A stretch of 64,000 nt of DNA from the IMG/VR virus record IMGVR_UViG_3300037512_001384, positions 6,442 to 70,441 of that record; one strand, written 5' to 3'. The notes under the pieces were generated by a model that saw nothing but the letters and a program-made list of their open reading frames with translations, was not told the DNA's origin and ran no database searches. Source of the stretch: a virus. Positions 2,664 through 61,455 of this stretch are shown here, piece after piece; the stretch's first letter is position 1, and every line of letters begins with the position of its first letter. The translations under genes were made by a program, and so were the position numbers.

Positions 2664-3068
2664 ATGCAAGCAACTGGTAAGATTATAGCAATACTTGAAC
2701 CGCGTTCTGGCATTGCAAAGGCATCGGGCAATCCTTGGTTTATCCAAGGGTTCGTGCTTCAGACCGAAGAGCAATATCCGAAAAAGATACCATTTGAGGT
2801 ATCCGGTGAGGATAGAGTCAAGAACTTCAATATCCAAAAGGGTGAGACGCTGACCATCAGCTTCGATATTGACGCGAAAGAATGGAATGGAAAATGGATT
2901 CCTTCTATTCGATGCTTCAATATATCTCGTGGTGACGGTCAGCAGCAAGCAGCTCCGGCTCAAACGCAGAATCAGCAACCCGCACAACATGCTGCACCTG
3001 CACCGCAGGCACCGCCACCTGATCCGTTAGAGACCCAGGGAGGTGCAGATGATGATGTCCCCTTCTGA
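2664..3068 (+). CDS. SSB-like OB-fold protein (DUF3127-like) with SSB-type acidic C-terminal tip DDDVPF
   Basis: 134-aa ORF. MQATGKIIAILEPRSG...NPW...FDIDAKEWNGKW pattern, a Q/P/A-rich linker, and a terminal DDDVPF resembling the bacterial SSB C-terminus (DDDIPF). Confidence 0.6.
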   Translation: MQATGKIIAILEPRSGIAKASGNPWFIQGFVLQTEEQYPKKIPFEVSGEDRVKNFNIQKGETLTISFDIDAKEWNGKWIPSIRCFNISRGDGQQQAAPAQTQNQQPAQHAAPAPQAPPPDPLETQGGADDDVPF

Positions 3069-3103: not shown

Positions 3104-3418
3104 TTGTCTCTCCGGGCACTAAAAGTGTTTTACATGAACGCAATAGATTTCACTCAGAAATACTCCTATGAGTTCATCCTTAAGCCTCCTCAAACCCTCG
3201 ATTATGAGGAATACAATGTTGATTGGTTCCTCACCCCTCGCGGTGACATGATGTGCAGGCGCGGCGGTTATGAAATATCGTCAGACATTCTGAACCGCCA
3301 ACACTGGCTGTGGTTTCTTGCAGAAAAACGTTGGTTTGACGCCAACACATTTCTTCCCGCCTATTTTGAGGCTTGTCGCAGAGCTGGGATAGAGAAAATT
3401 GAGATGAGGATAAGGTAA
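3104..3418 (+). CDS. hypothetical protein
   Basis: 104-aa ORF in the plus-strand operon with no recognisable motifs. Confidence 0.4.
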   Translation: MSLRALKVFYMNAIDFTQKYSYEFILKPPQTLDYEEYNVDWFLTPRGDMMCRRGGYEISSDILNRQHWLWFLAEKRWFDANTFLPAYFEACRRAGIEKIEMRIR

Positions 3419-3424: not shown

Positions 3425-4258
3425 ATGAAAGATTCATTTGTTTTTCATAAAGACTGGTACTTAGCCTTAAAAGGGTTAGACGTTCAAGACAAAGTTGAGG
3501 TCTATGAAGCTATAATGAGCAAAATATTTGATGGTGTAGATAAGAAACTTTCGCCTGTTGCACAGATGGCAATGAATTTTATTTCGCCACAAATTGAAAG
3601 GGATGTTGAACGTTATAATTCCATTTGTGAGCAACGCAAACTATTTGGTAGTAAGGGCGGTATAGCAAAAGCTACCAAAAGCTACCAAAAGGTAGCAAAA
3701 GGTAGCAAAAGCAAGCAAAAGGTGGCAAGTGTAGCTGATAATGATAATAATATATCATCTTCTACTAACGTAGAATCTGATAATGATATTATAGATATAG
3801 AAGTAAAAGATAAATCTTTTCCTTCTAAGAAAAAAAATAAATTATTTATACCGCCTACATTAAACGAAGTAGAGGCGTATGTAAAAGAAAAAGGCTATCA
3901 TTTCAGCGCCAAGGCATTCTTTGACTATTACGAAGCGGATGACTGGCATTACGGCAAAGGCAGTAATAGAACAAAGATATCGAACTGGAAGCGCTGTTGT
4001 GCCACATGGGAGGAGCGGCGTACTACAAGTAATAATATACCTCGTGAACCCGCATCGTTGTTTGATAACCATACTCCCGAACCGGAAGACGAACAGACTT
4101 TATTACAGAAAGCATACGAAGAACTGAACGACACCCAGGAGGCTGAGATATACGGAATGGTCCCCTATGAGTTTCACATGCTGAATGAGAACGGCAAGAA
4201 ATATTGGCGCGAAGTTTACAAGGAAAAGATGCTTGATTGGATCAAGAGCAACAGATGA
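3425..4258 (+). CDS. putative replication initiator (lambda O-like organisation; lysine-rich repeat linker)
   Basis: 277-aa ORF immediately upstream of the primase-helicase, stop overlapping its start (ATGA). Contains an in-gene 10-bp iteron array followed by an AT-rich stretch. C-terminal W-rich block (AFFDYYEADDWHYGKG...NWKRCCATWEER) resembles phage replication-protein C-terminal domains. Confidence 0.45.
   Translation: MKDSFVFHKDWYLALKGLDVQDKVEVYEAIMSKIFDGVDKKLSPVAQMAMNFISPQIERDVERYNSICEQRKLFGSKGGIAKATKSYQKVAKGSKSKQKVASVADNDNNISSSTNVESDNDIIDIEVKDKSFPSKKKNKLFIPPTLNEVEAYVKEKGYHFSAKAFFDYYEADDWHYGKGSNRTKISNWKRCCATWEERRTTSNNIPREPASLFDNHTPEPEDEQTLLQKAYEELNDTQEAEIYGMVPYEFHMLNENGKKYWREVYKEKMLDWIKSNR
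3661..3730. repeat. 10-bp iterons GCTACCAAAA x2 then inverted GGTAGCAAAA x2 (+2 degenerate copies) inside the initiator gene; candidate origin
   Basis: Read directly: aaagctaccaaaagctaccaaaaggtagcaaaaggtagcaaaagcaagcaaaaggtggcaag. GCTACC and GGTAGC are reverse complements. Followed by an ~80% AT stretch at 3735-3860. Confidence 0.6.
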
Positions 4259-6150
4259 GCGACAATATTCTTTATGTAGAGGATTTCAGACACGTCTTAG
4301 GCAGCAGGTCATCAGGTAACATAAAAACCTTCTGTCCTTTCTGCCATGAGAATCGTGGAAACAAGAGGGATAAATCCCTTTCGATAAACTGCGCGACCCT
4401 GGCATATAACTGCCATTATTGCGGTGCGAGCGGTTATCTGAAATCCCGGCATGAGGAAATGATGCGGAGAATAGACAGGGAAACAAGACAGATGTCCAAG
4501 ACTTATCGCAAACCCTCGGTCAAGCCCAACCTTCAACCTAAGCTCAATGCGGACATGGTTGAGTATTTCAAAGGGCGCGGCATCAGCGAGAAGACACTTC
4601 TTGAGGCGAAGGTCACAAAGGAGAATTTCTTTTTCCCGCAAGACAATTGCAAGCGCGGATGTATCGCTTTCAACTACTATGTTGATGACGAGCATATCAA
4701 CACCAAATATCGCACAAGGGACAAGCATTTCGCATTCATTGCCGGTGCCAAGGTAGTCCCCTATAACATAGACAGCATAAGAGAGAGCGCATTCAAGAAG
4801 GGTGAAAAGAAAATCTGCATCATCACTGAAGGTGAAGCGGATACTCTCACTTATATCGAATGCGGCTATAAGCATGTCATATCCATGCCGTCCGGTGCTA
4901 ACACCAATCTGGAATGGATGGATGACTTCACCGAATCCCACTTTGATAAACTTGAACTGATTTATGTATCGACAGACAGTGACAAGAAGGGTGTTGAAGC
5001 CAAGAATGAGATAGTACGAAGGTTTGGAGCTGAAGTATGTAAGATAGTTGAGTATCCGGAAGACTGCAAGGATATAAACGAGGTTCTTGTCAAATATGGA
5101 CCGGAGAAGGTAAAGGAATGCTTCGAGGGTGCTGCGGATATTAGAATCCAAGGTGTCGAGGAACTTGTTGACATAGAGTCAGACCTTGACAACCTGTTTA
5201 CTTCGGGACTTCAAAAGGGAGTAACCCTGGGATTGGAGGATATGGATAAACTTCTGTCCTTCAATACCGGAATGGTGACGGTCGTTACAGGAATCCCTTC
5301 GCACGGCAAAACCCAATGGTTGAATTTCGCTCTGATCAGACTCAATATCCTTCACTCATGGAAGGTGGCGTTCTTCTCTCCTGAGTTCTATCCTGTAGCG
5401 CTGCATATATCCCAAATCATAGAGACGCTTGGAGGTAAAAGGTTCTCATCCCAGAACTATACGCCTCAGACTTACGGCATCCTGAAGGAGTATGTCAACA
5501 AGAATTTCTTTTGGGTGGATCCTGATGACACGGATATAAGCTCAGTCTTGGACAGAGCCAAGTTCCTCATCCGCAAGAGAGGTATCAAGGCGTTTGTGAT
5601 TGACCCTTTCAATTCGCTGACAGACGAGAAGCGAACGATATACAAGCAGGATGAATATATTTCGGACTTCCTGCAGAAGATACGATGGTTCGCCAGGAAG
5701 TATGACGTTGCAATGTTCATCGTCATGCATCCCACCAAACAATACAAGCAGGATAACGGCTTATATCCGGTCTGTGACCTGTACTCATGTAAGGGTGCAT
5801 CTGAGATATACGACAAGGCTGATATCGGCATCACCGTATGGAGAAACGAGCAGGGTAATTACGGTGAGGTGCATGTGACCAAGATGAAGTTCCGTCACAT
5901 GGGACAGAAAGGACATGACACTTTCGTCTATAACTTCAATAACGCCCGGTTCGTTGAGATTCCCACTATGGACGCGAAGCGTGTGGCTCCCGACATGGAT
6001 AAAGTGAAGTGGGATAACAGCAATTATGTAATTGAGAATATCAAGACGCAGCAGAATCAGCAGGAATTGGATTTTGGAGCGGAGCAGCCGGAAACACCAC
6101 ATAATGAAAAACCCTTTGATGCGCCGATAGACGAAGATATCCCGTTCTGA
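4255..6150 (+). CDS. bifunctional DNA primase (Zn-finger + TOPRIM) / DnaB-like helicase
   Basis: CPFCHENRGNKRDKSLSINCATLAYNCHYCG zinc finger; TOPRIM ICIITEGEADTL; Walker A GIPSHGKTQW; Walker B AFVIDPFNSL. ATG at 4255 overlaps the upstream stop (an in-frame ATG at 4237 is the alternative start). C-terminus ends in an SSB-like DEDIPF. Confidence 0.85.
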   Translation: MSDNILYVEDFRHVLGSRSSGNIKTFCPFCHENRGNKRDKSLSINCATLAYNCHYCGASGYLKSRHEEMMRRIDRETRQMSKTYRKPSVKPNLQPKLNADMVEYFKGRGISEKTLLEAKVTKENFFFPQDNCKRGCIAFNYYVDDEHINTKYRTRDKHFAFIAGAKVVPYNIDSIRESAFKKGEKKICIITEGEADTLTYIECGYKHVISMPSGANTNLEWMDDFTESHFDKLELIYVSTDSDKKGVEAKNEIVRRFGAEVCKIVEYPEDCKDINEVLVKYGPEKVKECFEGAADIRIQGVEELVDIESDLDNLFTSGLQKGVTLGLEDMDKLLSFNTGMVTVVTGIPSHGKTQWLNFALIRLNILHSWKVAFFSPEFYPVALHISQIIETLGGKRFSSQNYTPQTYGILKEYVNKNFFWVDPDDTDISSVLDRAKFLIRKRGIKAFVIDPFNSLTDEKRTIYKQDEYISDFLQKIRWFARKYDVAMFIVMHPTKQYKQDNGLYPVCDLYSCKGASEIYDKADIGITVWRNEQGNYGEVHVTKMKFRHMGQKGHDTFVYNFNNARFVEIPTMDAKRVAPDMDKVKWDNSNYVIENIKTQQNQQELDFGAEQPETPHNEKPFDAPIDEDIPF

Positions 6151-6162: not shown

Positions 6163-6175
6163 TTATAGGCATATT
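6163..6175. repeat. left inverted repeat of MTase inverton (TTATAGGCATATT)
   Basis: Perfect 13-bp reverse complement of 6692-6704; 18/20 match when extended. Confidence 0.8.
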
Positions 6176-6688
6176 ATATTTCTTAGAGCCATGCATTATG
6201 GTATCCTTGCGACCGTCATAACCGGTTGCTATCTCCTGTATGGCTTCATGGTCAAAGAAATACTTCTCCTGTTTTGACATCAGGAATATATATTCATGTG
6301 CCTTCGTACAGCGGTCTTTGATGCTTTCGGGCTGCGGATTCAGCTTATGCCAGATGATGTCATTTCTCAGACGGAATCCGATACGGTCTCTTAGTGCGAA
6401 AGCCGCCATCCAGGGAATACCGATAAGACTTTTTGCATTGTCATAGCTATCTCCGAGGTTCAGCCAGAGCGTTCCTTCCGGTTTAAGAACGCGAAACACT
6501 TCCGTGAATACTTCGGTGAGTCTGTCGATATACTCTTCTGGTGACTTCTCCAGACCTATCTGACCGTCAATACCGTAGTCTCGCAGATTGAAATATGGCG
6601 GTGAGGTGACACAGCAATCAACGCAGTTGTCAGGAAGGCTTTTCATTCCGGTGAGGCAGTCTTCATTGAAAACTTTGTTGATTTCCAT
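6163..6688 (-). CDS. N6/N4 DNA methyltransferase, 5' half (MEINK...DPPY...HEYIFLMSK), inverted relative to its 3' half
   Basis: Minus-strand ATG at 6686-6688. Carries MEINKVFNEDCLTGMKSLPDNCVDCCVTSPPY, IIWHKLNP and HEYIFLMSKQEKYFFD (PF01555-like N-terminal and middle regions). As it stands, the frame runs on antisense into the primase 3' end down to 6041. Confidence 0.75.
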
Positions 6689-6691
6689 TAC

Positions 6692-6704
6692 AATATGCCT
6701 ATAA
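6692..6704. repeat. right inverted repeat of MTase inverton (AATATGCCTATAA)
   Basis: Perfect 13-bp reverse complement of 6163-6175. In both orientations it encodes residues N-M-P-I in frame. Confidence 0.8.
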
Positions 6705-9292: not shown

Positions 9293-9363
9293 GGTCGTAT
9301 GGCGTAATGGTAGCGCAACAGACTTTGGTTCTGTGTGTCCCGGTTCGATTCCAGGTACGACTA
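9293..9363 (+). tRNA. tRNA-Gln (anticodon TTG)
   Basis: Cloverleaf folded by hand: acceptor GGTCGTA/TACGACT (G-U closing), D-arm GCGT-AATGGTA-GCGC, anticodon arm ACAGA-CTTTGGT-TCTGT (U33, TTG, G37), T-arm CCCGG-TTCGATT-CCAGG (one C-A mismatch), discriminator A. Confidence 0.65.
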
Positions 9364-9498
9364 CAAATTATTTCAGGGGAAATAAAACCTGAATCGGGGA
9401 AATTTTATCGCCCCAAAATGTGAGAGAAAGGCAATATTGGGAAATCAAAGGAAAATTTCCCCTGTTTTTCAGGTCAAACGGAACAACAAGAAAACAAC

Positions 9499-44515: not shown

Positions 44516-45100
44516 TTAATCAACTTTGCAAACTCTTGTAAAACCAAATTTTGCCAACAGTTCAGGAGTTAAAAGACTTGCGTCTATTCCAAGACTTGCG
44601 GCCAGACTTGCGGACGCTCTTTGCAATTGCTTTTCATTTGCCTGCTTGCGTGCAGTCCGTGCAACTTCATCCCTGAATATATCGTAACTATTAAAACAAG
44701 TACGGAGGCCAGCGGCCGAAATTGTAGTTTTACGGTATGGAGTTAAACCGCTTTCCGTATTTCCTATTGTGTTTGTATCCGCTTCACTTTGAAAAGTGAT
44801 TGTAAAGTTGTTTGTTGCTTTCCTCACTTTTGCAAACACCCTCAAAAACAGATATTTTTCTGTTGCCATAAAAGGAGCGGAACGGAAAGAATCCGCAAAA
44901 CAAGCGGATAATTTATTAAGGTTTTCGGCCTCAATACTTGCGTTTTCGTTGTCAATACTTGCAAGTAGTTTGCTAATTGTGGTTTTACTTGCGTTTGCTT
45001 TTCTCAATTCCTTAACTGAAATACTTGTTACCAGTGTTTCAAGTTCAACGGTTGAAATACCTGAATAAAGGTAATCAACAAGATTTTTGTTTACTTGCAT
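44516..45100 (-). CDS. hypothetical protein (first gene of the minus-strand array, next to the origin-like region)
   Basis: 194-aa ORF with the upstream element. Confidence 0.5.
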   Translation of the reverse strand: MQVNKNLVDYLYSGISTVELETLVTSISVKELRKANASKTTISKLLASIDNENASIEAENLNKLSACFADSFRSAPFMATEKYLFLRVFAKVRKATNNFTITFQSEADTNTIGNTESGLTPYRKTTISAAGLRTCFNSYDIFRDEVARTARKQANEKQLQRASASLAASLGIDASLLTPELLAKFGFTRVCKVD

Positions 45101-45180
45101 AGTTGTAATATTTAAGAGTTAATAAAATAGTGTCAAAGTGCGCATATCGGAAACACCTTTCCGACACTATAAAATTACAA

Positions 45181-45370
45181 AAATAATCCGATATAATGCC
45201 AATATTTGTATATTTAACTTATGTTTAATTGATTGATATATAGTAAGTTATAAAGAAAGATTATACAATATTGTAGTATATATACAGGTTATTATTGTAT
45301 ATATACATAGATAGTTAATTATATAATAACTTAAATATATAGATATTTAACGGAAAAATACTTACAAATT
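45181..45370. other. ~80% AT stretch with TATATA-type repeats (candidate DNA-unwinding element of an origin)
   Basis: Base composition read directly; ORF-free. Confidence 0.45.
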
Positions 45371-45609
45371 GATCCCAGAGTTTCGGCAATAGGTGCAAAC
45401 CGATGAACACACAACCAACACGGCAATAAAGCGGAAAAGTTGCAAGGAGCGACAAACCCCACAACGGACCGACAACGCGACCGCGAGCGGATACAATACA
45501 ATTATAATGTATTTGTTTTGCAGGAAAAACCGCGCGAATACCCCACCCAGAGAAGGCTACCCCCGACCCCCTAAATACGTTTGTATTGCGTGGGGGTCAG
45601 CCCCCGCCG

Positions 45610-45850
45610 AGATTTTCAATTTTTCATTTTTCGTTTTTACTTTTCGTATGCGGAACATGTTTCTGTGTATCTCAATCGGTGTTTCTGGTCTATATATATC
45701 AGTCCTGATGCCGTGTATCCTTGTCTGCGCGTTGATTATGGTCTGATACATGGGTATCTATGGAAAAAGGGTCAAAAAAGCCTGAAAAAGCCCCAAAATA
45801 CCCTGAAAATAGGGGTCAAAAAGAGGTGCTTTTCCTCAAAAAAGGCTGTT
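45610..45850. other. phased T-tracts then A-tracts at ~10-bp spacing (intrinsically bent DNA)
   Basis: gattttcaatttttcatttttcgtttttacttttcg ... ggtcaaaaaagcctgaaaaagccccaaaataccctgaaaataggggtcaaaaag. Confidence 0.45.
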
Positions 45851-45975: not shown

Positions 45976-46013
45976 ACCAAATTTCGATACCCAGGTATTG
46001 GTTTGTTTAGTTA

Positions 46014-47483
46014 TTGTTTTTATATATGGGTAAAGGTACACAAAACAACAATTTCACGCTTATTGAAGACCTTAGTAAGCTGATTTACAACTCGCTGAAC
46101 AAAGCTCCGTTGAAGGAGTCCTATAAGCTGTATTCATCGGGTGACAGGGTATATGTCTATCAGGAGGTCATCCTTGATGCCTGCAGCAAGTGTTTCCGGT
46201 CTTACATGGGTGATGTATATTACTTCGACGGCAGGATATGGTGTCCTCTGGCTGATATTGTGCTTGAGACTGCGTTGAGCAAGGCGTTGGTGCAGGGAGG
46301 AGCGCGTAAGTCGGATATCGTGAATGCCAGGAGCAAGATTCTGTATTCGGCACGTGGCGGTGCGTCGATGTCACCGTTGGAGTTGCGTGCGTCGGTCATC
46401 GGATTCCGTAACGGCGTATGGGATTTCACTGACATAGACAACCCGGTCTATCACTCTTTTGCCGAGCGTATGCCTGTGGTGCGGATACTCCCTTACGACT
46501 ATGACCCTGATGCGGGCTGTCCGAAGTGGCAGGCGTTCCTGCAGTCCATCTTGCCGAAGGGTGAGATAATGAAGCTCCAGAAGTACCTCGGTCTCGGCTG
46601 TGCTGACCGTAAGAGCATGACGCATAAGATTGAAGAGACGCTGTGGCTCATCGGGTCGGGTGCCAACGGCAAGTCCACCATCTTCGACGTGGTACGCGGG
46701 GTGTACGGTGCGGATAACATCAGCTATGTGGGTCTCGATACGCTGCTTAGCGGCTCGTCGGACGTGCGTGCGCGGTTCATCGGGAGCATCGTGGGTAAGA
46801 TCTTCAACTACTGCTCGGAGATACAGGCGGATGACATATCACGTTACGCCGATACCTTCAAGTCCCTCTGTTCGGGTGAGCCGCAGACCGTGAGAAGGTT
46901 GGGTCAGAACCCCGAGACCACCTTCGACATACCGTTCCTTGTGTTCAACATGAACCAGAAGCCCACGAACCGGCGTATGGACCAGGCTCTCGTGCGCCGT
47001 CTGCTCTTCATACCTTTCAAGACCACCGTCTCTGCCGCCGACATGAACCGTGAGCTCTCGTCGGAGCTGCTGAAGGAGCTGCCGGGTATCCGCAACTGGA
47101 TGATAGAGGGCTATAAGATGCTCATACGTGACGGCTATCAGTTCAACACCACCAAAGCCGCCGATGATGAGATGACCGACTACATGCTGGAGAACGGTCA
47201 GACGGTGCAGGTGTTCCTACAGAAGAAGGGCTACTCATGTAACAGGCGCACGGGACACTGGGAGGACCGTATCCAGTGGGTTCCTGCGTCCGCTCTCTAT
47301 GAGGACTATGTGTCGTTCTGCGAGAAGTGGCTGCAGGATCCTGTCAAGCAGCGTGCTTTCGGCAGTGAGATGGCACGTCTCGGATGGCATGAGACGGGAG
47401 GGAACCGCAAACGTACCGGCACGGGTTACGCCTACGGCATCTTCTGCGAGAAGGATATCGATTACGCAAAAAATAACATCTGA
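46014..47483 (+). CDS. P4/D5-family SF3 helicase (phage/plasmid primase C-terminal domain + D5_N-like)
   Basis: NGVWDFTDIDN...CPKWQAFLQSIL...LWLIGSGANGKST (Walker A)...FNMNQKPT...RRLLFIPF. Confidence 0.75.
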   Translation: MFLYMGKGTQNNNFTLIEDLSKLIYNSLNKAPLKESYKLYSSGDRVYVYQEVILDACSKCFRSYMGDVYYFDGRIWCPLADIVLETALSKALVQGGARKSDIVNARSKILYSARGGASMSPLELRASVIGFRNGVWDFTDIDNPVYHSFAERMPVVRILPYDYDPDAGCPKWQAFLQSILPKGEIMKLQKYLGLGCADRKSMTHKIEETLWLIGSGANGKSTIFDVVRGVYGADNISYVGLDTLLSGSSDVRARFIGSIVGKIFNYCSEIQADDISRYADTFKSLCSGEPQTVRRLGQNPETTFDIPFLVFNMNQKPTNRRMDQALVRRLLFIPFKTTVSAADMNRELSSELLKELPGIRNWMIEGYKMLIRDGYQFNTTKAADDEMTDYMLENGQTVQVFLQKKGYSCNRRTGHWEDRIQWVPASALYEDYVSFCEKWLQDPVKQRAFGSEMARLGWHETGGNRKRTGTGYAYGIFCEKDIDYAKNNI

Positions 47484-47486
47484 GCT

Positions 47487-47768
47487 ATGGTGACGGGAAG
47501 AGACAGACAGCCGCTCTCGGAGGAGCAGGAGCGTGAGATAAGGAAGGAGCTGGAGATGATGGACGCCGACGAGCGTGCCATGCTCGCGGGTTACGGACTC
47601 CCGCAGATAAGACGTATCCGTGACATCTGCCATTCGGACATGCAGCCGGATGCGATGAGCGCGATACTGCGTATGGAGGGTTTCGTCAACATAGCCGATG
47701 ACATAGACCGCCGCCTGGAGGAATACAGGCAATACAGGGAGAAGCATAAAAACGACACTATTGTTTAA
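47487..47768 (+). CDS. hypothetical protein
   Basis: 93-aa ORF. Confidence 0.45.
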   Translation: MVTGRDRQPLSEEQEREIRKELEMMDADERAMLAGYGLPQIRRIRDICHSDMQPDAMSAILRMEGFVNIADDIDRRLEEYRQYREKHKNDTIV

Positions 47769-47783
47769 CCAATACTATTATCT

Positions 47784-48608
47784 ATGAAGAAGTTTCTTTT
47801 GTTTCTGGCAGTAGCTTTATTGACAAGCATTGCGATGACCTCCTGTCACGGTGTCCGTCCGGATGCCGACGAGGAGGCGGTGCTCATTCACAAGCCGTGG
47901 TTCTTCGGTCATGGCGGCGTGGCAGATAACCCTGTCGAGACCGGACTGCGCTGGTGCTGGTGGAGCACGTCGAGTGAGACGTTCAAGATCGTGCCGCAGA
48001 AGCAGCAGGTGGATATGGAGGACTTGGTATCCAACGACAACACACCGCTGGACTTCCATACGGTCATCATCACGCAGATCGTCAAGGGCAAGTCACCCGT
48101 CCTGCTGGTCAACTACGGCACGGACTGGTTCAACACCAACCTCTACAACTACTACTGTAACCGTGTGCGTGACTACATATCACAACACAGCCCCTTCGAC
48201 CTGATGTCCAATCGTGAGGTGTTAAATGAGATTGACACCAAGGTGCTCAGGGAGATGCGCGAGTACGTAGCCGAGCTGTCAGCCGAGAAGGAGTTCCCCG
48301 TGGAGATAAAACAGGTGGTCATCGGACGTGCCATTCCCAACGCGGAGCAGCTGGAGGAGATGAACCGCACCGCCAAGGCTGTTCAGGCGAAGCAGACACA
48401 GGAACGTGAGGTGGAGGTGCAGCTGGCACGTGAGAAAGCCGAGCGTCAGCGTGCCATCGCGGATAAAGCCTATCAGAATGAGATGGGACTGTCGGCACAG
48501 CAGTTCATACAGCTCAAGGCATGGGATATCATCGCGCAGAAGCAGGGTGCCAACATAGACGTCCTCTTCGATGCGGACGGAGCAAGCAAGATGTGGAACA
48601 TTAAATAA
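47784..48608 (+). CDS. SPFH/band-7-like lipoprotein
   Basis: Lipoprotein signal MKKFLLFLAVALLTSIAMTSC. C-terminal coiled AEQLEEMNRTAKAVQAKQTQEREVEVQLAREKAERQRAIADKAYQ typical of SPFH (HflK/C-like) proteins. Confidence 0.55.
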   Translation: MKKFLLFLAVALLTSIAMTSCHGVRPDADEEAVLIHKPWFFGHGGVADNPVETGLRWCWWSTSSETFKIVPQKQQVDMEDLVSNDNTPLDFHTVIITQIVKGKSPVLLVNYGTDWFNTNLYNYYCNRVRDYISQHSPFDLMSNREVLNEIDTKVLREMREYVAELSAEKEFPVEIKQVVIGRAIPNAEQLEEMNRTAKAVQAKQTQEREVEVQLAREKAERQRAIADKAYQNEMGLSAQQFIQLKAWDIIAQKQGANIDVLFDADGASKMWNIK

Positions 48609-48616
48609 CTATCACT

Positions 48617-49348
48617 ATGGGTACAATCAGAGTAGGACAGAAAGACCCCAAGAAATTCGCAAACGAGGGTATCACACTGGTACGTCCCACCAAGGTGGAG
48701 GCAGGGACCTCCATGACAGAGGACGAGAAGAAGCGTTTCATCGACGCCGTGATGCAGATGCCGAAGGAGAAGCGTGTCGGTATGCTGCGTGAGAAGGGTC
48801 TCACGAAAGAGGCTGACGAGTATGAGCAGTTTCTCGCGGAGGATCACCTGCGTGAGATGCGCGAAGCCAACCGCAAGAAACGTCTTGAGGATATACGTAC
48901 ATTACCGGAGGATGAGCAGCTGCCGCTCCTGATAGCCGAGGGTTATGAGGATGAGGCGGAGGAGCTGTCCGCCAAACTCGCCGAGGAGAAAGCCGCCGAG
49001 AAAGCCGCGAAAGCGGCAGCAGAGGCTAAGGGCTCAGGCGAGGGTAAGGAAGATACTGATGCCGGCACCGGTGAAGGTGAGCAAGCCCCCGAACAGAACG
49101 GTGAGGGTGAGCAGGCATCAGGTGAAGCCAAGGAGGGTGAGGAAACCCAGGAGGAGGCACCTGCTGACGCTGCACCTGCTGAGAGCGAGGCTGCACCAGA
49201 GCCAGAGCCGGAACCCGAGCCCGAACCTGCACCTGCACCGGCGGAGGAGAAAGCCGCTGTGAATGAGAGTAAGAGCAAGAAGAACGTCGCCAAGGCACCA
49301 TCCAAGGCCAAGGCTCCGTCAAAAGCAAATAACCCTTCAAAGAAGTGA
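48617..49348 (+). CDS. acidic low-complexity protein (E/A/K/P-rich; EPEPEP repeats)
   Basis: 243-aa ORF; the out-of-frame ORFs 48943-49311 (-) and 48945-49262 (+) are repeat artefacts. Confidence 0.45.
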   Translation: MGTIRVGQKDPKKFANEGITLVRPTKVEAGTSMTEDEKKRFIDAVMQMPKEKRVGMLREKGLTKEADEYEQFLAEDHLREMREANRKKRLEDIRTLPEDEQLPLLIAEGYEDEAEELSAKLAEEKAAEKAAKAAAEAKGSGEGKEDTDAGTGEGEQAPEQNGEGEQASGEAKEGEETQEEAPADAAPAESEAAPEPEPEPEPEPAPAPAEEKAAVNESKSKKNVAKAPSKAKAPSKANNPSKK

Positions 49349-49351
49349 GTT

Positions 49352-49825
49352 ATGGATGAAGAGAAAAGACAAAAGATAGAGTCGTTCGTCAGTGGTCTGA
49401 CGGAGGCTGAGGCACGGGAGCAGCTGAAACTGGCTTACGAGCAGATGGAGTTATGCAATGAACTCCTGCACGGTCATAAGGCAGAACCTGTAGAGATGAA
49501 GGACAACGGTCTGTCATCTGACCTGGAGTTGTTCTACAGCTGTAAGAAGATACGTATCGAGCTCAACGGCTATACCGGCGAGAAATTCGGCGAGGGACAG
49601 AACTATCCCGTCTTCGAGGTCGGCGAGGAGGTCTTCTACATGCGTGACAACAGGATTCGCATGTCTGCGGTCAAGGAGGTGGACGCCAGTGACATAGAGA
49701 ACGTCATGTACACCCTGGAAACAGGTGAGGTCATGGCGGAGGATGACCTCTATGACGGCATCGACGAGCTGACGGAAAGCCTCGTGTTTAATCTCTATGA
49801 GGATCTGAGACAGGAGGGTGACTGA
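49352..49825 (+). CDS. hypothetical protein
   Basis: 157-aa ORF. Confidence 0.45.
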   Translation: MDEEKRQKIESFVSGLTEAEAREQLKLAYEQMELCNELLHGHKAEPVEMKDNGLSSDLELFYSCKKIRIELNGYTGEKFGEGQNYPVFEVGEEVFYMRDNRIRMSAVKEVDASDIENVMYTLETGEVMAEDDLYDGIDELTESLVFNLYEDLRQEGD

Positions 49826-51404
49826 TATGCATGTAGGCAAGAGAAGAGGTTACAGGGCACCGCTGCGGGTTTCGACCGGCGGCGGTATCGCCCTTTGTGT
49901 CATCGGACGTATGGAGAACCGCTATGCTGTGGAGTTCGTGGAGCATTACCTCTCTCTGGGATTCGACAAGATATACGTCTGTGACAACAACAGGGACGGC
50001 GAGGAGCGGTTCGAGGATGTGTTGCAGCCTTATATCGACGAGCACCGTGTGACGATAGTGGATTACCGTAACCGCAGTGCGGCGCAGTGTCCCGCCTATG
50101 CAGAGGTCTATGAGCAGCACCGTAACGAATACCGGTGGATGGCGTTCTTCGACTTCGACGAGTTCCTGGAGCTGGAGGTCTGTGATGACATACATGAGCT
50201 CATGGATAACTACTCGGGGTTCGACTGTGTGTTTTTCAACTGGAAGAACTACGGTGACAACGGTCAGGTGCGTGATGACGGTCGTGACCTGCAGGAGCGT
50301 TTCACCGAGCCCTTACCCGATAACCTGTGCGTGCAGTATGATGACATACCCGAGAACTGGCATGTCAAGAGCATCGTCCGTGGCGGCATCAGGGATCTGG
50401 CGTTCCATTCCAACCCTCATATACCGTCCAAGTTCATGCGTTGCTGTAACACGTCGGCTCAGGAATGTGAGCAGAAACCCTTCCAAAAACCCGACTTCTC
50501 GGTGGCTTACCTAAAGCATTACATCACCAAGACCGTTGAGGAATGGGCTTCCGTCAAATGCAGGCGTGGCGGTGGCACGCACCGTAACCTTGAGCAGTTC
50601 CGCTCCCTTTATACCGGGCGATTCTTCAAGTATAACGAGTGGACACAGGAGAAGGAGGACATCTTCCGCCGTATAAGCGGTATGCCGCCGTTCAAGGCAG
50701 CTAAGAACCGTAACGTCGTTATCGTCAACTACAACACGCAGAAGCTCACGGATGCGACGATAATGTCTCTCAACAGGCATACTCCGGGATGTAAGGTGTA
50801 TGTGTTCGACAACAGCAACAAAGAGCCGTTCGTCAACACCTTCGGTAACGTCGAGGTGATTGACAACACCAAGTGTCAGCATATAGACTTCGAGAAGATG
50901 CTGCAGGAGTATCCGGACCGTGTGGTTGAGACGTGGGTCGGCAGTAACTACGGTTCTGCGAAGCACTGCAGGACGGTGGACATTTGTCTTGACCTCTTCC
51001 CCGAGGGATTTCTTCTCATGGACAGTGACGTCCTGGTGAAGAAGGACATAACGCCGTTCTTCGACGCCTCATGTGTCTGGACGGGTCTGGTGGGTAATCA
51101 TACGAGCCGCTGGGGTATCACCGTGCCGCGTGTGCTGCCTTACATCTGCTACCTCAACGTGCCGATGATACGTAAGAACGGCATACGTTACTTCAACGGT
51201 GACAAGATGTACGCCCTCACCGACCGTGAACCGAATAAAGCCTATGATACCGGTGCCTGGTTCTATGAGGACTGCAACAACCACGGTCTGCCGGTCCACG
51301 ACCTGCAGATCAACGACTATATCCTGCACTTCGACCACGGGAGCTGGCTTGACAAGAGCCCCGACGAGTGGCTGGATGAACATTCTGATTTATGGAAAGA
51401 CTAA
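49818..51404 (+). CDS. two-domain glycosyltransferase (GT-A fold: GT92/DUF23-like N-domain + GT2-like C-domain)
   Basis: ENRYAVEFVEHYLSLGFDKIYVCDNN...WMAFFDFDEFLEL (GT92-like DxD); second domain VVIVNYNTQKLTDATIMSLNRHTPGCKVYVFDNSN...MDSDV. Confidence 0.55.
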   Translation: MTDMHVGKRRGYRAPLRVSTGGGIALCVIGRMENRYAVEFVEHYLSLGFDKIYVCDNNRDGEERFEDVLQPYIDEHRVTIVDYRNRSAAQCPAYAEVYEQHRNEYRWMAFFDFDEFLELEVCDDIHELMDNYSGFDCVFFNWKNYGDNGQVRDDGRDLQERFTEPLPDNLCVQYDDIPENWHVKSIVRGGIRDLAFHSNPHIPSKFMRCCNTSAQECEQKPFQKPDFSVAYLKHYITKTVEEWASVKCRRGGGTHRNLEQFRSLYTGRFFKYNEWTQEKEDIFRRISGMPPFKAAKNRNVVIVNYNTQKLTDATIMSLNRHTPGCKVYVFDNSNKEPFVNTFGNVEVIDNTKCQHIDFEKMLQEYPDRVVETWVGSNYGSAKHCRTVDICLDLFPEGFLLMDSDVLVKKDITPFFDASCVWTGLVGNHTSRWGITVPRVLPYICYLNVPMIRKNGIRYFNGDKMYALTDREPNKAYDTGAWFYEDCNNHGLPVHDLQINDYILHFDHGSWLDKSPDEWLDEHSDLWKD

Positions 51405-51416
51405 TAACAATGTGAT

Positions 51417-52034
51417 ATGGAGAAAGAAGAGTTGACAATTAAGATACCGTTCGGCAAGGCCGCACGTATCGGTAACTTCAAGATATGGCGTTCACGTGTG
51501 GAGCAGCAGTTCATGCCTCAGCTCTCCGACGAGCAGAAGGAGATGATAAAGGAAGGCAAGGCGCGACCCAAGAAGCTGAAAGGGGACATCGAGGCTATCA
51601 ATATCAGTAACCTTGACGGCACATGGATGGTACGCATACCGCAGACCTATGAGATGTTCGGCATGATCACCTGCTGCTATCAGTGGAGTCAGAGCCACAA
51701 CCCCGAGGACCGTGAGCGTGGTGTGAGTTTTCTCTCCACCGCTTTGTCGAACATGATATTCTGCTCGACGATTTGCAACGGATTCTACCACCAGGCTCTT
51801 AAGATGATAGCCACCGCCTACGCCCATCCGTCACTGCTGTCCGACAAGAAGCAGCGTAAGGATTTCGATAAGGAAGCCAAAGACCTCATCAAACGGTTCC
51901 TTGACTGGCGTGTGGAGTATGAGCGTCATCTCAAGGAGAAGGAGCTCAGCGATAAGGAACTGGAGCGTGACGCCAAGGCCGATGCCATGCGTGAGGAGCT
52001 GGCAAAAGCCGAGGAGGGTGAGAAAAGCGAGTGA
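51417..52034 (+). CDS. hypothetical protein
   Basis: 205-aa ORF. Confidence 0.45.
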   Translation: MEKEELTIKIPFGKAARIGNFKIWRSRVEQQFMPQLSDEQKEMIKEGKARPKKLKGDIEAINISNLDGTWMVRIPQTYEMFGMITCCYQWSQSHNPEDRERGVSFLSTALSNMIFCSTICNGFYHQALKMIATAYAHPSLLSDKKQRKDFDKEAKDLIKRFLDWRVEYERHLKEKELSDKELERDAKADAMREELAKAEEGEKSE

Positions 52035-52624
52035 TAGCTATGGAACTCTCGAAGACCAAGCAGAACGAAGCGAATAAATTGGGTGTGCCATTGCAGTATC
52101 TCATCATGGCGGATCTGATGGCTCTGGGTTATACCGAGGATGACGCGCATACCCTCGCCTATCCGGAGAACGCCTTGCTGTCCGAACAGAAGAAGAAGAC
52201 GGTCATCACCGGTATCATCGAGACCGCCAAGTTCCGCAAGCTGCTTGACACCCGCCGCGCACGTATCAAGGACGGTACGGCCGCTCCCATACTGCTTGAC
52301 GAGGTGGAGCTGGCAGACACAGAGGAGGTGCTGAAGGAGGTGCTGCGCTCAGCCAAGCAGCAGCCGGTCGGCTCCAAGGAACGCGCAGACCTGTTCGCAC
52401 GCTATCACGAGATAAAGACCAAGAACGAGCAGGGGTCGGAGGACGAGACCGATTACATCAACTTCGTCCTTCCCCTCAAATGCAACCAGTGTCCGCTCCT
52501 GTCGGCTTATAACGACTTCTTGAAACAGGAGGGTAAGAAAGAGCTCAGACCGGATGAGATGATGCATGTGATGCGTAACGCACATGTCGTTGTCGATGCG
52601 GCACGTAAGGCACATACGCTGTAA
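52031..52624 (+). CDS. hypothetical protein
   Basis: 197-aa ORF. Confidence 0.45.
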   Translation: MIAMELSKTKQNEANKLGVPLQYLIMADLMALGYTEDDAHTLAYPENALLSEQKKKTVITGIIETAKFRKLLDTRRARIKDGTAAPILLDEVELADTEEVLKEVLRSAKQQPVGSKERADLFARYHEIKTKNEQGSEDETDYINFVLPLKCNQCPLLSAYNDFLKQEGKKELRPDEMMHVMRNAHVVVDAARKAHTL

Positions 52625-52644
52625 CCGACGGCTCATAAGAAGGC

Positions 52645-52686
52645 GAAAGGCGATCTCTTCACAGAGACCGCCTTTCTGATTTTTAA
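52645..52686. terminator. bidirectional rho-independent terminator between convergent operons
   Basis: GAAAGGCG...CGCCTTTC stem followed by TGATTTTTAATTT. Confidence 0.65.
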
Positions 52687-52702
52687 TTTCATTACTATGA
52701 TG

Positions 52703-53587
52703 CTATTGCGGATTATCTATTGTATTCTCATCGAGAAGGAAGATTGGGATTGCGTAACAGCAGCAGTTGGCATGATACATGGGGAATCCCTCCTTGTCCT
52801 TGATGTCATGGAAGCCCACCATCGAGTCACATTTCGCACACGGATAGGTCGAGCCGCGCAGCACGTAATAGCCCACTGCACCGTCTTTCTCGTAATCCAT
52901 GCCGAGAGACTTCATCCATGCCATCTGCAGCGTTGTCTTCGCCATGTTGGTGACGTTGGTCGAGCCGTTGTTGGATATGCCGACCGCGCCGTGCTGCACG
53001 CCGAGGCTCTGTATATACTGAGCGGCGAAGTCACGGTTATGCTTGAACGCCGCCAGCACCTCCGGCATGACATATATGGCATGTTTGTACATCTTGAGTC
53101 TGATGACCGCCTGTGCCATCGTGACCTTCACGGCCCGGAGCGCGGCGATAGCGGCTTCAAAGTCCTTCATCGTCTTATACAGGTAGCCGTCGAGGGTGTC
53201 ACGCAGGTTCTTGTTACCACGTCCGAGTACAGCCATCCATGCGAGCAGCCGTGCTATACGGTCCTTGTCATCGGTCACACGTGTCGAATACTCGTTGATG
53301 AGATTCAGTATCCTCTCTTCGACATCATCCATGACCTCCGATATCTCACTCATCATGTCCTCGTTGTACTGGTAGCTGATGGTGAAGGTCTCGGGGTCCA
53401 CGTCATAACGGTAACAGATGGTGACGATACGTTCAGCCATGTCATCGAGGATATCGTCAACACGTGACGCGAGGGCACGCGCCATCTCGTTACGACGGAG
53501 TATGAAATCCTTGGCAGAACGGATGTCATCCTCCTTCGGTAAACGGTAGCGTGTGCCGTCAATCTTTATCCTGATGGTGCTGGCCAT
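52703..53587 (-). CDS. phage head morphogenesis protein (Mu gpF / SPP1 gp7 family)
   Basis: C-terminal signature AVGYYVLRGSTYPCAKCDSMVGFHDIKDKEGFPMYHANCCCYAIP (Y.W...C..C...G......P.HpnC.C); placed after the portal. Confidence 0.7.
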   Translation of the reverse strand: MASTIRIKIDGTRYRLPKEDDIRSAKDFILRRNEMARALASRVDDILDDMAERIVTICYRYDVDPETFTISYQYNEDMMSEISEVMDDVEERILNLINEYSTRVTDDKDRIARLLAWMAVLGRGNKNLRDTLDGYLYKTMKDFEAAIAALRAVKVTMAQAVIRLKMYKHAIYVMPEVLAAFKHNRDFAAQYIQSLGVQHGAVGISNNGSTNVTNMAKTTLQMAWMKSLGMDYEKDGAVGYYVLRGSTYPCAKCDSMVGFHDIKDKEGFPMYHANCCCYAIPIFLLDENTIDNPQ

Positions 53588-53590
53588 GAA

Positions 53591-55348
53591 TTAGTGTGTT
53601 GCGTTCCACCGGTTCCAGTTGTTCTCGTTCGGACGATTACCCCACTTGTCGGTATTCAGACGGTTGGGTCTTCCCTGTCCGCGACCTGTGGCTACCGAGC
53701 CTTTGGTCTTCTTTGAGACCTTACCTTTCTCCTCCTGTCCCTGCTCAATCCTGTTCTCAGCTTTGGCGACCTCAATTTGCTGGTTGGTCTCAATCTCACT
53801 GAGCTCACGCTGCATGTCTATGTTAGCGTCGTTCTGAATCTCCAGACGTTGCTCTTCAAGGAGCAGCTGGTTCATCATAGCCTCATGCTCCTCGTTGCAG
53901 ATACGCTCCCATTCGTTCGGTGTAGCATACGGGCTCTTCTCGGATGCCGTCTGTCGTGACAGGAACTTACCTACCACGGATGTGTTGAGGTTATTGGTCA
54001 GCTCGGTGTTGTTGACATGGATGTAAGGCTCAAGGTAATGACGTATGTTGGTTTTCATAAACGACAGCCTCATCTCAGCCTCGATGCCGTAACCCCATGT
54101 GAATATCTGAACCATGTCATCCACCACGCCGTCATACTCCTGTGCGTCATTCATAGCCTTCTCATAGGCGTCGGAGTACATGATCTTCAATGCCACACCC
54201 GGAGTGTCACCGGACTTGAGCTCAGGAGTCTTGACGGCGAAGGACTGCTTGTATATGGCATCCTCCACCTTATCCAGCTCGGCTTTGTAGGCGTTGGAGG
54301 CATCCTGGCGGTTGAGGAATCCAATCTCACCGTCTTCAGGAAGCAGCATTATCTTCGATGCGTATGACATATCCTTGGTGGTGATCTCCTCCGAACCCTC
54401 GCCCTTGACATACATGATAGGCAGACCGAAGTCATGGTTGCTGTGGGCGAGGTTGGAGAAGGCTACCTCATAGTTCTCGATGGACTCCTCTGAGAATGTC
54501 CAGCACGGACCGTTGTCATCACGCTTGTAAGCGACCGGGATACCGTTGAAACCATGCGGTTCTATGTACTCCAGCTTATAGCCGTCGGTGGAGAATATCT
54601 TCAGTATGAGTTGCTTCGCCTTATCGAAGATATTGGAAGGGTCGCCGTCAGCCACGAACCGGTAGTAGTAGGTGTTGTCCCATACGTCGATGTAACGCTT
54701 GGTGACGCTGCCGTCTTCCGAGTAGTTGCAGTAGGTACGTGCCAGGGTGTTGATTTTGCCGGTACGCATGTCATAATGCGGAAACAGACGGTCGCCGTTG
54801 AGGAAGCTCAGCACCTTCCATCCGAACTTACCGTTATCCATGAAGCCCACGAACGCGCCGTCACCGGTCGCCTTGACGGACTTGGCCAGCTGATACCATG
54901 CCACCTCCATGTTCTTGTTCGCCCATCCGTTACGGAAGGCGTTGAAGACGTTACGGCTCTCTTCGGTCACGGTGGTATCCGACAGCTCGAACTGCACGTC
55001 ATTACCGCACAGGTGTGTGAGGTGCTTGACGAGTATGATCTGCTGGTATGCGAAGGCGTAACGTGGTATCTCCTGGATATACCAGCGTCCGTCCTCCTCG
55101 TTCTGCTGCCATACGTCAGGGTAGAGCTCCCTGTCGTTGATGATGTGTCCTGCAGGATCCAGCTCACGCAAGAAATCCTCCTGTGTGATAATCTTACGTC
55201 TGAGGATGTCATGTGTCAGCGGAATCTCCGACGCTTCGTTCCAAACATACCCGTGGTCATAATGACCGTCGGGAAGGATACGAGTGAAAGGCTTCTTTGT
55301 CAGAAGGTCTCTCAGTTGTTTCTTGGTCTCGATGATGTTGTCTGCCAT
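53591..55348 (-). CDS. portal protein (by size and synteny)
   Basis: 585-aa ORF between the large terminase and the MuF-like gene; basic C-terminal tail. Confidence 0.55.
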   Translation of the reverse strand: MADNIIETKKQLRDLLTKKPFTRILPDGHYDHGYVWNEASEIPLTHDILRRKIITQEDFLRELDPAGHIINDRELYPDVWQQNEEDGRWYIQEIPRYAFAYQQIILVKHLTHLCGNDVQFELSDTTVTEESRNVFNAFRNGWANKNMEVAWYQLAKSVKATGDGAFVGFMDNGKFGWKVLSFLNGDRLFPHYDMRTGKINTLARTYCNYSEDGSVTKRYIDVWDNTYYYRFVADGDPSNIFDKAKQLILKIFSTDGYKLEYIEPHGFNGIPVAYKRDDNGPCWTFSEESIENYEVAFSNLAHSNHDFGLPIMYVKGEGSEEITTKDMSYASKIMLLPEDGEIGFLNRQDASNAYKAELDKVEDAIYKQSFAVKTPELKSGDTPGVALKIMYSDAYEKAMNDAQEYDGVVDDMVQIFTWGYGIEAEMRLSFMKTNIRHYLEPYIHVNNTELTNNLNTSVVGKFLSRQTASEKSPYATPNEWERICNEEHEAMMNQLLLEEQRLEIQNDANIDMQRELSEIETNQQIEVAKAENRIEQGQEEKGKVSKKTKGSVATGRGQGRPNRLNTDKWGNRPNENNWNRWNATH

Positions 55349-55359
55349 ATCTGTTGATG

Positions 55360-58152: not shown

Positions 58153-58261
58153 ATACGGTGTATTTCATTGGTAAAATGAAAGATTACCAAAATAAAAGCG
58201 CTTAGGAAAACACCAATCACTATAATTTGGCGAAAAATCTTTACAAATTATAGCAATTGGT

Positions 58262-59125
58262 ATGGAAAAAACAGCACTAATTCAGGAATTTAGGACCAGG
58301 CTTGGAGAAGACAACGCCAAGGTCATCAGTGACAAAACTTTCGACGGTATCGCCGATACAGTATTACCTCTCTTCGCGGATGACTCGAAAATCACCGAAG
58401 AGACGTGGAAGCTCCCTATCGCCATGCTGACTCAGTATGCAGGGCAGAAGCGTCACGATGAAGCCGAGTTCGCCAAGAAGTATCAAACCGAGTACGCCAC
58501 ACAGCATGAGCAAGATGTTGCCAAGCGTATCAAGGACGCAGCTGGCAAGGCTGTCGAGGAGTACAAGAAAGCTCACCCGGATAAGCCCGGTGGAGAAGGT
58601 GGCGACGGCGGTAACGGCGGCGAAGGTGGAAAGGACGATCTCAAAACAATGGTAAGTAACGCCGTAGCCGAGGCTATGAAGGGACTGACCGGTGACGAGA
58701 GCGAACTTTCAAAGGCACTGAAATCAATAAACGCATTTACGGCTTCACAGGCTGCACGGGAAAAAACCGACAACAAGAACCGCGTGAAGACCGAGCTCAT
58801 CAGCTACCTCACCGGTCTGGAGAAGGAAGCCCGCAAGGGTGGAGATATCCCGGCCGAGATTCAAGCTCTCATCGAAGATGCCGCTACTTACCTCGATTAC
58901 GGAGAAGACCCGAAGACTGACGCTCTCAAGCCCAGCATCAAGGCTTTCTACGAGAAGGAGTACAAGCGTCGCTACCCCAACGGAGGACAACCCTTCGGCG
59001 GTTCAAGCACCGGCGGTGGCGGCGGAGAGACGAACACCTTCGTCAAGGAGAAGATCGAGCAGCTGAAGAAGGAGGCCAAGGAAAGCGCGGACTACGCCAC
59101 CGAACAGGAGAAGACCTTCTGCTAA
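58262..59125 (+). CDS. scaffolding-like protein (acidic, Gly-rich, coiled-coil)
   Basis: 287-aa ORF upstream of the capsid candidates. Confidence 0.45.
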   Translation: MEKTALIQEFRTRLGEDNAKVISDKTFDGIADTVLPLFADDSKITEETWKLPIAMLTQYAGQKRHDEAEFAKKYQTEYATQHEQDVAKRIKDAAGKAVEEYKKAHPDKPGGEGGDGGNGGEGGKDDLKTMVSNAVAEAMKGLTGDESELSKALKSINAFTASQAAREKTDNKNRVKTELISYLTGLEKEARKGGDIPAEIQALIEDAATYLDYGEDPKTDALKPSIKAFYEKEYKRRYPNGGQPFGGSSTGGGGGETNTFVKEKIEQLKKEAKESADYATEQEKTFC

Positions 59126-59171
59126 TCCAGGGGGCAAACAAAAGGTTTGTTAAACAAAAACTCACAGAAAA

Positions 59172-59834: not shown

Positions 59835-59851
59835 ACAAAGGAGATTAGATT

Positions 59852-61015: not shown

Positions 61016-61037
61016 TACTTTGACAATGTGATTTGAC

Positions 61038-61451: not shown

Positions 61452-61455
61452 AGCT

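Follow-up and report, generated by a model that had tools for sequence, protein, structure and literature searches.

A putative replication origin was identified at positions 3661-3855 of a 64,000-nucleotide stretch of viral DNA (IMG/VR record IMGVR_UViG_3300037512_001384, positions 6,442 to 70,441; the whole stretch is referred to below as the window). This segment is probably the theta-type origin of the phage (or prophage), of the lambda/SPP1 type, and lies inside the linker-coding part of its own initiator gene (3425-4258). It consists of seven contiguous 10-bp repeats (iterons) followed by an AT-rich tract presumed to be a DNA-unwinding element (DUE). Several observations support this reading, among them that the repeat units are constrained as DNA, an AT-rich tract adjoins them, helicase or helicase loader genes lie downstream, and the C-terminal module of the encoded protein also occurs in proteins of replisome-organizer type. 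The sequence features of a generic iteron origin are present, namely at least three helically phased direct repeats, an AT element of low stability, an initiator gene in cis and a helicase or loader gene nearby. A preliminary description of this DNA, made from the sequence alone, had proposed a lambda-like origin within the initiator gene. The layout and gene context it described hold up and origin function is suggested by sequence; the protein itself, however, is not a relative of lambda O.

The DUF6291 gene and its protein product

The candidate initiator gene (+ strand) encodes a protein of 277 amino acids composed of a DUF6291 N-domain, a disordered linker and a C-terminal module. The DUF6291 profile (PF19808) matched residues 4-82 (profile positions 1-79 of 79), scoring 64.9 bits against a cut-off of 27.2 (E = 7.4e-18). 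In an AlphaFold2 (AF2) model, residues 1-76 are helical with a predicted local distance difference test score (pLDDT) of about 90, residues 79-137 score below 50, residues 140-203 score 82-91 and a helical tail lies beyond. Residues 79-137 are predicted from this model to form a disordered linker, which coincides exactly with the part encoded by the repeat array and the AT-rich tract. That the repeats encode a K-rich linker, so that binding sites could be tolerated within a coding region, had been part of the preliminary description, and the position of the array in the disordered-linker part agrees with it.

The part of the gene coding for the N-domain (3425-3657, + strand) is presumed to specify the iteron-binding portion, based on the PF19808 match, the AF2 model and the co-segregation of N-domain clusters with repeat class described below. 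A fold search using the N-domain returned no recognisable match, with no DNA-binding or winged-helix fold recognised, and no match to the lambda O family (PF04492), to PF09681 or to TIGR01714 was found in the window protein. A remote relationship of DUF6291 to the SPP1-type Phage_rep_org_N domain (PF09681) was considered and rejected (hhalign probability 0.1%).

The conserved C-terminal module (residues 140-203, encoded at 3842-4033, + strand) is presumed to recruit the helicase. It reads FIPPTLNEVEAYV...DYYEADDWHYG...WKRCCATW in the window, with the consensus F.PPT..EV..Y..EKGY...DYYEADDWHYG...WK..C.TW among proteins P0009-P0062, and no Pfam or NCBIfam model covers it. The module was found behind at least five N-domains of initiator type: DUF6291, Phage_rep_org_N (PF09681/TIGR01714), RepA_N (PF06970), HTH_36/DnaD_N-like and Lin1244_N (PF14297). 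Its similarity to the C-terminal part of the PF09681-bearing proteins P0040-P0061 amounts to 57% identity over 21% of the query (E = 1e-14 to 1e-11). Judged from this distribution among sequences, it is a mobile domain not previously described.

Repeats in the linker-coding part were also seen in genes that join this module to other N-domains (L006, approximately 4160-4290; L005, approximately 3930-4000). L006 has six copies of CTAACGCA, arranged as two triplets with a spacing of 12 bp, and the alignment of the P0040 group of PF09681 proteins displays the repeated peptide SIEYRDKSIENRDKSIE. An origin placed within the linker-coding part may, on these sequences, be general to the whole set of modular initiators.

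The repeat array

The seven units (3661-3730, + strand) follow one another in exact 10-bp steps: TATAGCAAAA at 3661, GCTACCAAAA at 3671 and 3681, GGTAGCAAAA at 3691 and 3701, GCAAGCAAAA at 3711 and GGTGGCAAGT at 3721. The array carries phased A-tracts and is translated as IAKATKSYQKVAKGSKSKQKVAS. Tandem Repeats Finder reported it at 3663-3728 with a period of 10, 6.6 copies and 85% matches, and gave a second solution of period 30 with 2.2 copies; a repeat search likewise returned six overlapping 30-nt copies stepped by 10 nt. The pattern GSTASCAAAA has four matches in the 64 kb, all in the array, against 0.28 expected, a count of four being reached in none of 100 shuffles. Outside the array, the shorter string TAGCAAA has only two matches in the window.

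Two copies of GCTACCAAAA followed by two of GGTAGCAAAA at 10-bp spacing had been described before, with two degenerate copies after them; the pairs are present as described, the total being seven with one extra unit upstream of those listed. The further statement that GGTAGCAAAA is the reverse complement of GCTACCAAAA is incorrect, as the true reverse complement is TTTTGGTAGC. Inverted symmetry therefore does not apply to the 10-bp units, and only the 6-bp cores GCTACC and GGTAGC are reverse-complementary to each other. As the A4 tracts are all of one polarity, the array is direct and helically phased rather than inverted, and dyad symmetry within the units is limited to the near-palindromic 6-bp core GSTASC. 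A hairpin formed in single-stranded DNA by pairing of GCTACC with GGTAGC was given no weight; it is possible with any near-palindromic core and so uninformative, and the arrangement is not conserved.

Among 90-bp segments of the window, 3641-3730 is predicted by a wedge model to rank second in curvature, with a ratio of end-to-end to contour length of 0.81 against 0.977±0.02 for the window. Such curvature is as expected from phased A-tracts.

The 99%-identical contig L098 differs from the window at only two nucleotides in the first 426 nt of the gene, and both differences fall within 3658-3734, which indicates micro-variation of iterons among near-identical phages. One of these converts the core of the unit at 3681-3690 of the window from GCTACC to GGTACC (5257-5266 in L098). 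The idea that core positions 2 and 5 strictly depend on each other was considered and dropped, since the GGTACC core is present in this contig.

Constraint on the array at the DNA level

Constraint was assessed in a sample of 77 DUF6291 genes, no two of them identical, taken from viral genomes and contigs, to which the contigs of close homologues were added. Relatives that keep the linker peptide and lose the DNA repeats, which the preliminary description had named as telling against an origin, were not encountered; the relatives keep the DNA repeat while the peptide changes. In L001, whose protein is 60% identical, the array is retained almost base for base: nucleotide identity to the window is 93.5% in the array, compared with 63.5% in the N-domain, 51% in the AT-rich tract and 71% in the C-domain, and third codon positions are 88% identical in the array against 48% in the N-domain and 47% in the C-domain. 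L002 and L004 (46% amino acid identity) carry GCTA[G/C]CAAAT units, where a concerted change of A4 to AAAT recasts the peptide as AKQANASKCYQMLPNDSKSKQNVANLP.

The periodicity was tested on a stretch set by position only, the 75 nt that follow residue 77, by comparison with 2000 synonymous recodings. Identity at a lag of 10 nt in the window is 0.74, against 0.40±0.06 in the recodings, and the same test gave p<0.01 in 47 of the 51 genes that carry this class of repeat (class A). A codon-usage test (Ser AGC 85% versus 19%) was dropped in favour of this position-defined resampling because the arrays had been defined by motif, which made the former circular. Counted without reference to any motif, 66 of the 77 genes have a 7-mer that occurs three or more times within 120 nt downstream of the N-domain, compared with one gene when the N-domain itself was searched. 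These comparisons of sequences argue for selection acting on the DNA of the array and not on the peptide.

The consensus of 250 units, drawn from 49 loci where they follow each other at strict 10-bp intervals, is G-[C 56%/G 27%]-[T 64%/A 35%]-A-[G 84%/C 15%]-C-A-A-A-[A/T]. As a 10-bp period runs through all three reading frames, the sites would be limited by what is encoded; units fall almost evenly on the three codon offsets (68, 83 and 99). Where core positions 3-5 are read as one codon, TAG occurs in no unit, its place being taken by GCAAGC (37), GCTACC (18) and GTAAGC (14), and the remaining two offsets are dominated by GCTAGC and GGTAGC. The window obeys this rule, with GCTACC at 3681 and GCAAGC at 3711 standing at the stop-prone offset. 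The copies previously regarded as inverted and degenerate are thus most readily explained as variants of a single unit, G[C/G]TAGCAAAW, that avoid a stop codon.

The array could also be conceived as a neutral coding minisatellite, in which a slippage-prone, low-complexity, K-rich linker acquires its periodicity as a by-product of mutation or of selection on the peptide. Its location within the disordered linker would suit such an origin by slippage, as would the in-frame period of 30 bp (10 amino acids) also given by Tandem Repeats Finder, the slippage-type hexamer runs such as (GATAAT)n that adjoin the array and differ among relatives in unit and copy number, and the copy number of the array, which ranges from 3 to 10. 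However, the 10-bp unit is out of frame, and a peptide repeat therefore cannot account for the array. The periodicity lies far above that of synonymous recodings of the same peptides, third codon positions are conserved in the array to an extent that the flanking domains do not approach, and the DNA unit is kept where the peptide changes. The unit is moreover constant across lineages with N-domains only ~30% identical, while the adjoining hexamer runs drift. A neutral minisatellite is accordingly considered very improbable.

The AT-rich tract and its inverted repeats

The presumed unwinding element (3731-3855) directly follows the iterons and encodes the N/D/S/K-rich part of the linker. Its AT content is 76.8% overall and 81.8% over 3741-3850, in keeping with the roughly 125 bp of about 80% AT reported earlier, and its GC content falls to 0.19 at 3750-3849. 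It is the second lowest-GC 120-bp stretch of the window. Nearest-neighbour energies make 3745-3844 the second least stable 100 bp, with a duplex free energy of -103 kcal/mol against -138.8±7.5 kcal/mol for the window.

Two copies of CTGATAATGATA[A/T]TA, 42 bp apart (3735-3791, + strand), represent GATAAT-type hexamer repeats, and AT-rich hexamer runs after the iterons, such as (GATAAT)n, (GATAGT)n or (GTAAGT)n, occur in most homologues. Very long perfect runs lie directly 3' of the iterons in several loci, for example (GATAAT)n with more than 10 copies (L088, approximately 230-330; L009, approximately 3290-3360; L070; L013), which suggests that the AT-rich element grows and shrinks in length by slippage.

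Two inverted repeats were identified within the tract. The first (IR1, TTCTAC-TAAC-GTAGAA, 3760-3775) has a predicted single-stranded DNA fold of -5.5 kcal/mol (z = -5.4) and is kept in the close clade with compensatory changes in its arms. In nine close-clade sequences 96% of cells are paired, both sides have changed in three of the six pairs, and the covariation score was reached by none of 500 shuffles. The outer arms occur as the compensatory variants GAT..ATC, GGT..ACC, TCT..AGA and AAT..ATT, and the encoded peptide varies along with them (DTNVS, GTKVP, STNVE). The second (IR2, 3798-3827) possesses 14-nt arms, TAGAAGTAAAAGAT and ATCTTTTCCTTCTA, that are 93% complementary across a 2-nt gap, with a predicted single-stranded fold of -6.4 kcal/mol (z = -3.2), and a further IR1-type copy is found near its position in L001, L002 and L004. 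An Rfam scan of the region gave only a sub-threshold chance match, and no RNA family accounts for it. The segment of GATAAT run and hairpin is retained at the peptide level in some class-B-like proteins. Taken from these sequences, this suggests a repeat module specific to the N-domain combined with an unwinding module common across classes.

Gene context

The primase-helicase gene (Toprim and DnaB_C domains; 4255-6150, + strand; phrog_239, E = 8.4e-80) overlaps the end of the initiator gene through the sequence ATGA at 4255-4258. This confirms the start/stop overlap noted previously, and the gene calls in L098 (5001-5834 and 5831-7726) agree. Upstream lies a gene for a DUF3127 single-strand DNA-binding protein (SSB; 2664-3068, + strand; PF11325, phrog_4932), assigned to the replication module, with the same synteny in L098, L099 and L100. 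The module in the window runs in the order RecT, PDDEXK-FtsK fusion, DUF3127 SSB, small ORF (open reading frame), initiator gene and primase-helicase, with a methylase gene also as neighbour. The small ORF occupies 3104-3418 and is likewise found in L096, L097, L098 and L099.

Across 50 related loci, the gene immediately downstream encodes a DnaB-type helicase in 21 (six with Toprim), an IstB/DnaC-like loader in four, a G39P-type loader in two, and a lambda P homologue and a DnaA-type ATPase in one each, so that a helicase or loader follows in at least 29. This gene order is that of lambda O-P and SPP1 38-39-40.

The same array could instead serve as a functional DNA site other than an origin: an operator through which the replication operon is autoregulated, a site for packaging or of centromere type, or a conserved linker favouring recombinational exchange of the C-module. 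ParR-type centromeres, parC of plasmid R1 among them, are arranged as contiguous direct repeats of 10-11 bp, about one helical turn each, that are bound cooperatively along one face, and the array of the window resembles these in its contiguous short direct repeats. Plasmid iterons are also known to act in autoregulation, which would fit an operator. In addition, the array stands exactly at the junction where differing C-domains are joined to the same N-domain and linker (for example in L099 and L100), as a site of exchange might. Unlike parC, however, the array is inside a replication gene beside an AT-rich tract and a helicase gene; no partition family was found among the 50 downstream genes, and no partition ATPase or NTPase (ParA/ParM) or terminase gene lies near the array, its neighbours being RecT, the nuclease-ATPase, SSB, primase-helicase and methylase. 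Throughout the family such arrays go together with an AT-rich tract of low stability and with genes for helicases or loaders, which is an origin signature, and an origin role is compatible with autoregulation. A purely non-origin site is therefore judged unlikely.

Distribution of DUF6291 and its repeat classes

Matches to the N-domain form approximately 840 clusters at 50% identity (E<=1e-3). Other DUF6291 clades carry alternative units at the equivalent place, of AACCCA, GGAACAAAT and ATCGCC types: AAACCCA with inverted GTGGGTT occurs for instance in L041, L050 and a Bacteroides finegoldii record, GGAACAAAT with inverted GTTCCAAAT in L007, and ATCGCC-type units in the L022 group. In a tree built by the unweighted pair group method with arithmetic mean (UPGMA), the repeat class tracks the N-domain cluster. 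Class A arrays were also identified in cultured phages, with eight units in Vibrio phage D478 (OZ196413.1, gene VPHD478_0024) and about five in Riemerella phage vB_RanS_CRP19 (OR089151.1, gene CRP19_000055); the DUF6291 homologues of cultured phages are annotated as hypothetical. Among 72,556 plasmid records DUF6291 was found in one, which is prophage-like with an adjacent integrase and so provides no independent plasmid-replicon evidence for the family.

Proposed mechanism and points weighing against it

A mechanism can be inferred by analogy with lambda, SPP1 and the lactococcal phages TP901-1 and Tuc2009, on which its steps of binding, opening and recruitment are modelled. Copies of the DUF6291 N-domain would occupy adjacent units along the same helical face, oligomerising into an O-some-like complex on pre-bent DNA. 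Stress from this complex would open the AT-rich element next to it. The C-terminal module, which also occurs behind the N-domain of SPP1-type replisome organizers, would recruit the primase-helicase encoded by the adjacent gene, and the DUF3127 SSB would coat the opened strands and stabilise the bubble.

The N-domain is not the only conceivable reader of the units. The segment could be an origin whose units are recognised by another factor, such as the product of 3104-3418, a host factor or bending alone, with the DUF6291 protein acting as adaptor or organizer. The class A unit is constant across N-domains of only ~30% identity, and phages with hosts from different phyla (Vibrio phage D478 and Riemerella phage CRP19, for instance) share it; a diverging domain is not obviously expected to keep its site. 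The N-domain has no recognisable DNA-binding fold, a small ORF sits just upstream in the window and in four of the related contigs, and curvature is intrinsic to the sequence. Against this, the repeat class switches together with the N-domain cluster, and the array always abuts the part coding for the N-domain, even where the C-domain and downstream genes differ. Lambda O, G38P, ORF13 and Rep2009 moreover bind repeats within their own genes (PMC7466680, PMC5737612, PMC8965321). Recognition by another factor is thus regarded as improbable, and the N-domain is retained as the presumed reader.

Besides the constancy of the class A unit, several further points count against an origin at 3661-3855 that is bound by the DUF6291 protein. 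The co-segregation of repeat class and N-domain may be explicable by physical linkage alone. The predicted curvature of the array depends on the wedge parameters used. A literature search found no papers on DUF6291, and binding, unwinding and replication are proposals from sequence. The GC skew, suggested earlier as a check, has no inflection at 3.7 kb; it is positive to ~26 kb and negative from 26 to 44 kb, and since it follows gene orientation the test is uninformative. Finally, an intergenic region that is more AT-rich and more curved lies at 45.1-45.8 kb.

Within that region, both GC content (0.15) and duplex stability reach their minimum for the window at 45221-45340, between the divergent ORFs 44516-45100 (- strand) and 45393-45746 (+ strand). 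Curvature over 90 bp is strongest in a segment that begins at 45776 and overlaps 21-bp direct repeats (45763-45804). The region 45100-45850 may represent a regulatory switch, the boundary of an element or another candidate origin.

Comparison with known origins

The iterons of lambda are about 19 bp long, have internal dyad symmetry and are separated by spacers. The lambda origin lies in the middle of gene O and comprises four iterons and an AT-rich tract (PMC7466680). The putative origin described here resembles it in lying within the initiator gene between the parts coding for the N- and C-domains, in the order of repeats followed by AT-rich tract, in a bent or (here, predicted) curved repeat region, and in the gene for a helicase partner directly downstream, a lambda P homologue occupying this place in one of the 50 DUF6291 loci. 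It differs in having seven abutting 10-bp units, one per helical turn, rather than four longer, spaced iterons. The protein also differs from lambda O, bearing a DUF6291 N-domain with neither PF04492 nor a recognisable winged-helix fold, and the downstream gene encodes a fused primase-helicase and not a loader for host DnaB.

In phage SPP1, oriL is embedded in gene 38 and consists of AB boxes and a DUE (PMC5737612). The organizer G38P has an N-terminal DNA-binding part and a C-terminal helicase-recruiting part, and a comparable division is presumed for the window protein. The C-module of the latter is fused to PF09681/TIGR01714 N-domains in other phages, and a G39P-type loader follows two of the 50 DUF6291 genes. 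Unlike in SPP1, the N-domain is not PF09681, the repeats differ in sequence and format, and no oriR-like second origin copy was found in the window, the unit being essentially confined to the array.

The proteins ORF13 of TP901-1 and Rep2009 of Tuc2009 bind repeats within their own genes (PMC8965321). These lactococcal P335 phages share with the window an SSB gene and a loader or helicase gene nearby; they differ in N-domain family, repeat units and hosts (Firmicutes, as opposed to Bacteroidota and others), and in that their origins are experimentally shown, while that of the window is proposed from sequence.

Plasmid iteron origins such as those of pPS10, F, R6K and RK2 consist of direct repeats bound by an initiator encoded in cis, with an adjoining DUE and bent DNA. 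Their iterons are typically 17-22 bp in length, are spaced by about two helical turns and lie outside the rep gene. The putative origin of the window is similar in its direct repeats, adjacent DUE and predicted bending, and different in its 10-bp units inside the gene; DUF6291 is, in addition, essentially absent from plasmids.

Other features of the window

No match for the window was found in a DNA similarity search against 50,697 phage records. Directly after RecT, positions 571-2658 form a single ORF of 695 amino acids in which a PD-(D/E)XK nuclease is fused to an FtsK/HerA-type ATPase, also present in L098. RecT recombinases do not usually have such a partner. Behind the primase-helicase, the DNA methyltransferase gene is broken by a 516-bp inversion (6163-6704 in the window, compared with 7743-8272 in L098): when reverse-complemented, 6171-6700 aligns as one 530-nt block with the intact gene of L098, which encodes 329 amino acids. 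The inverted segment is flanked by a 13-nt inverted repeat (TTATAGGCATATT/AATATGCCTATAA), and looks like either an intragenic invertible switch (ON in L098, OFF in the window) or an assembly artefact at the inverted repeat.

A tRNA-Gln gene (anticodon TTG) was identified at 9293-9364, within the phage-like region. Near 46 kb the GC content rises from approximately 0.46 to approximately 0.53 (region ~46000-64000), and the first gene beyond this point (46014-47483) encodes a D5_N/DUF5906 primase-helicase-like protein. This position is probably a junction of the phage or prophage with host DNA or with a second mobile element.

Implications for DUF6291 and its phages

An origin located inside an initiator gene is of a textbook kind. 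The putative origin of the window differs from the known examples in its uncharacterised protein family and in its repeat format, in which abutting 10-bp units, one per helical turn, are shaped by the overlapping reading frame. More broadly, and with the balance of probability standing about even, DUF6291 may represent a large unrecognised class of initiators in phages of Bacteroidota, Vibrio and Riemerella and in uncultured phages. Members would use minimal 10-bp iterons, one to each helical turn, in the linker-coding region, with one unit G[C/G]TAGCAAAW retained in phages from several bacterial phyla and tuned to the three reading frames by stop-avoiding variants. A hairpin in the unwinding element, maintained by compensating changes, would serve as an additional signal, for example for helicase loading or priming.

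The array and its gene provide a clean natural case of a coding sequence and a binding-site array constraining one another, seen as a 10-bp period that passes through three frames and as site variants that avoid stop codons. If the proposal is true, a DUF family would gain a function, with DUF6291 as an origin-binding initiator. A simple sequence rule would then be available to find origins in hundreds of uncultured phages and prophages, many of them from gut Bacteroidota, whose phage and prophage origins have almost never been mapped. This would benefit annotation, the design of phage-derived replicons and engineering tools, and the estimation of prophage replication activity from read depth.

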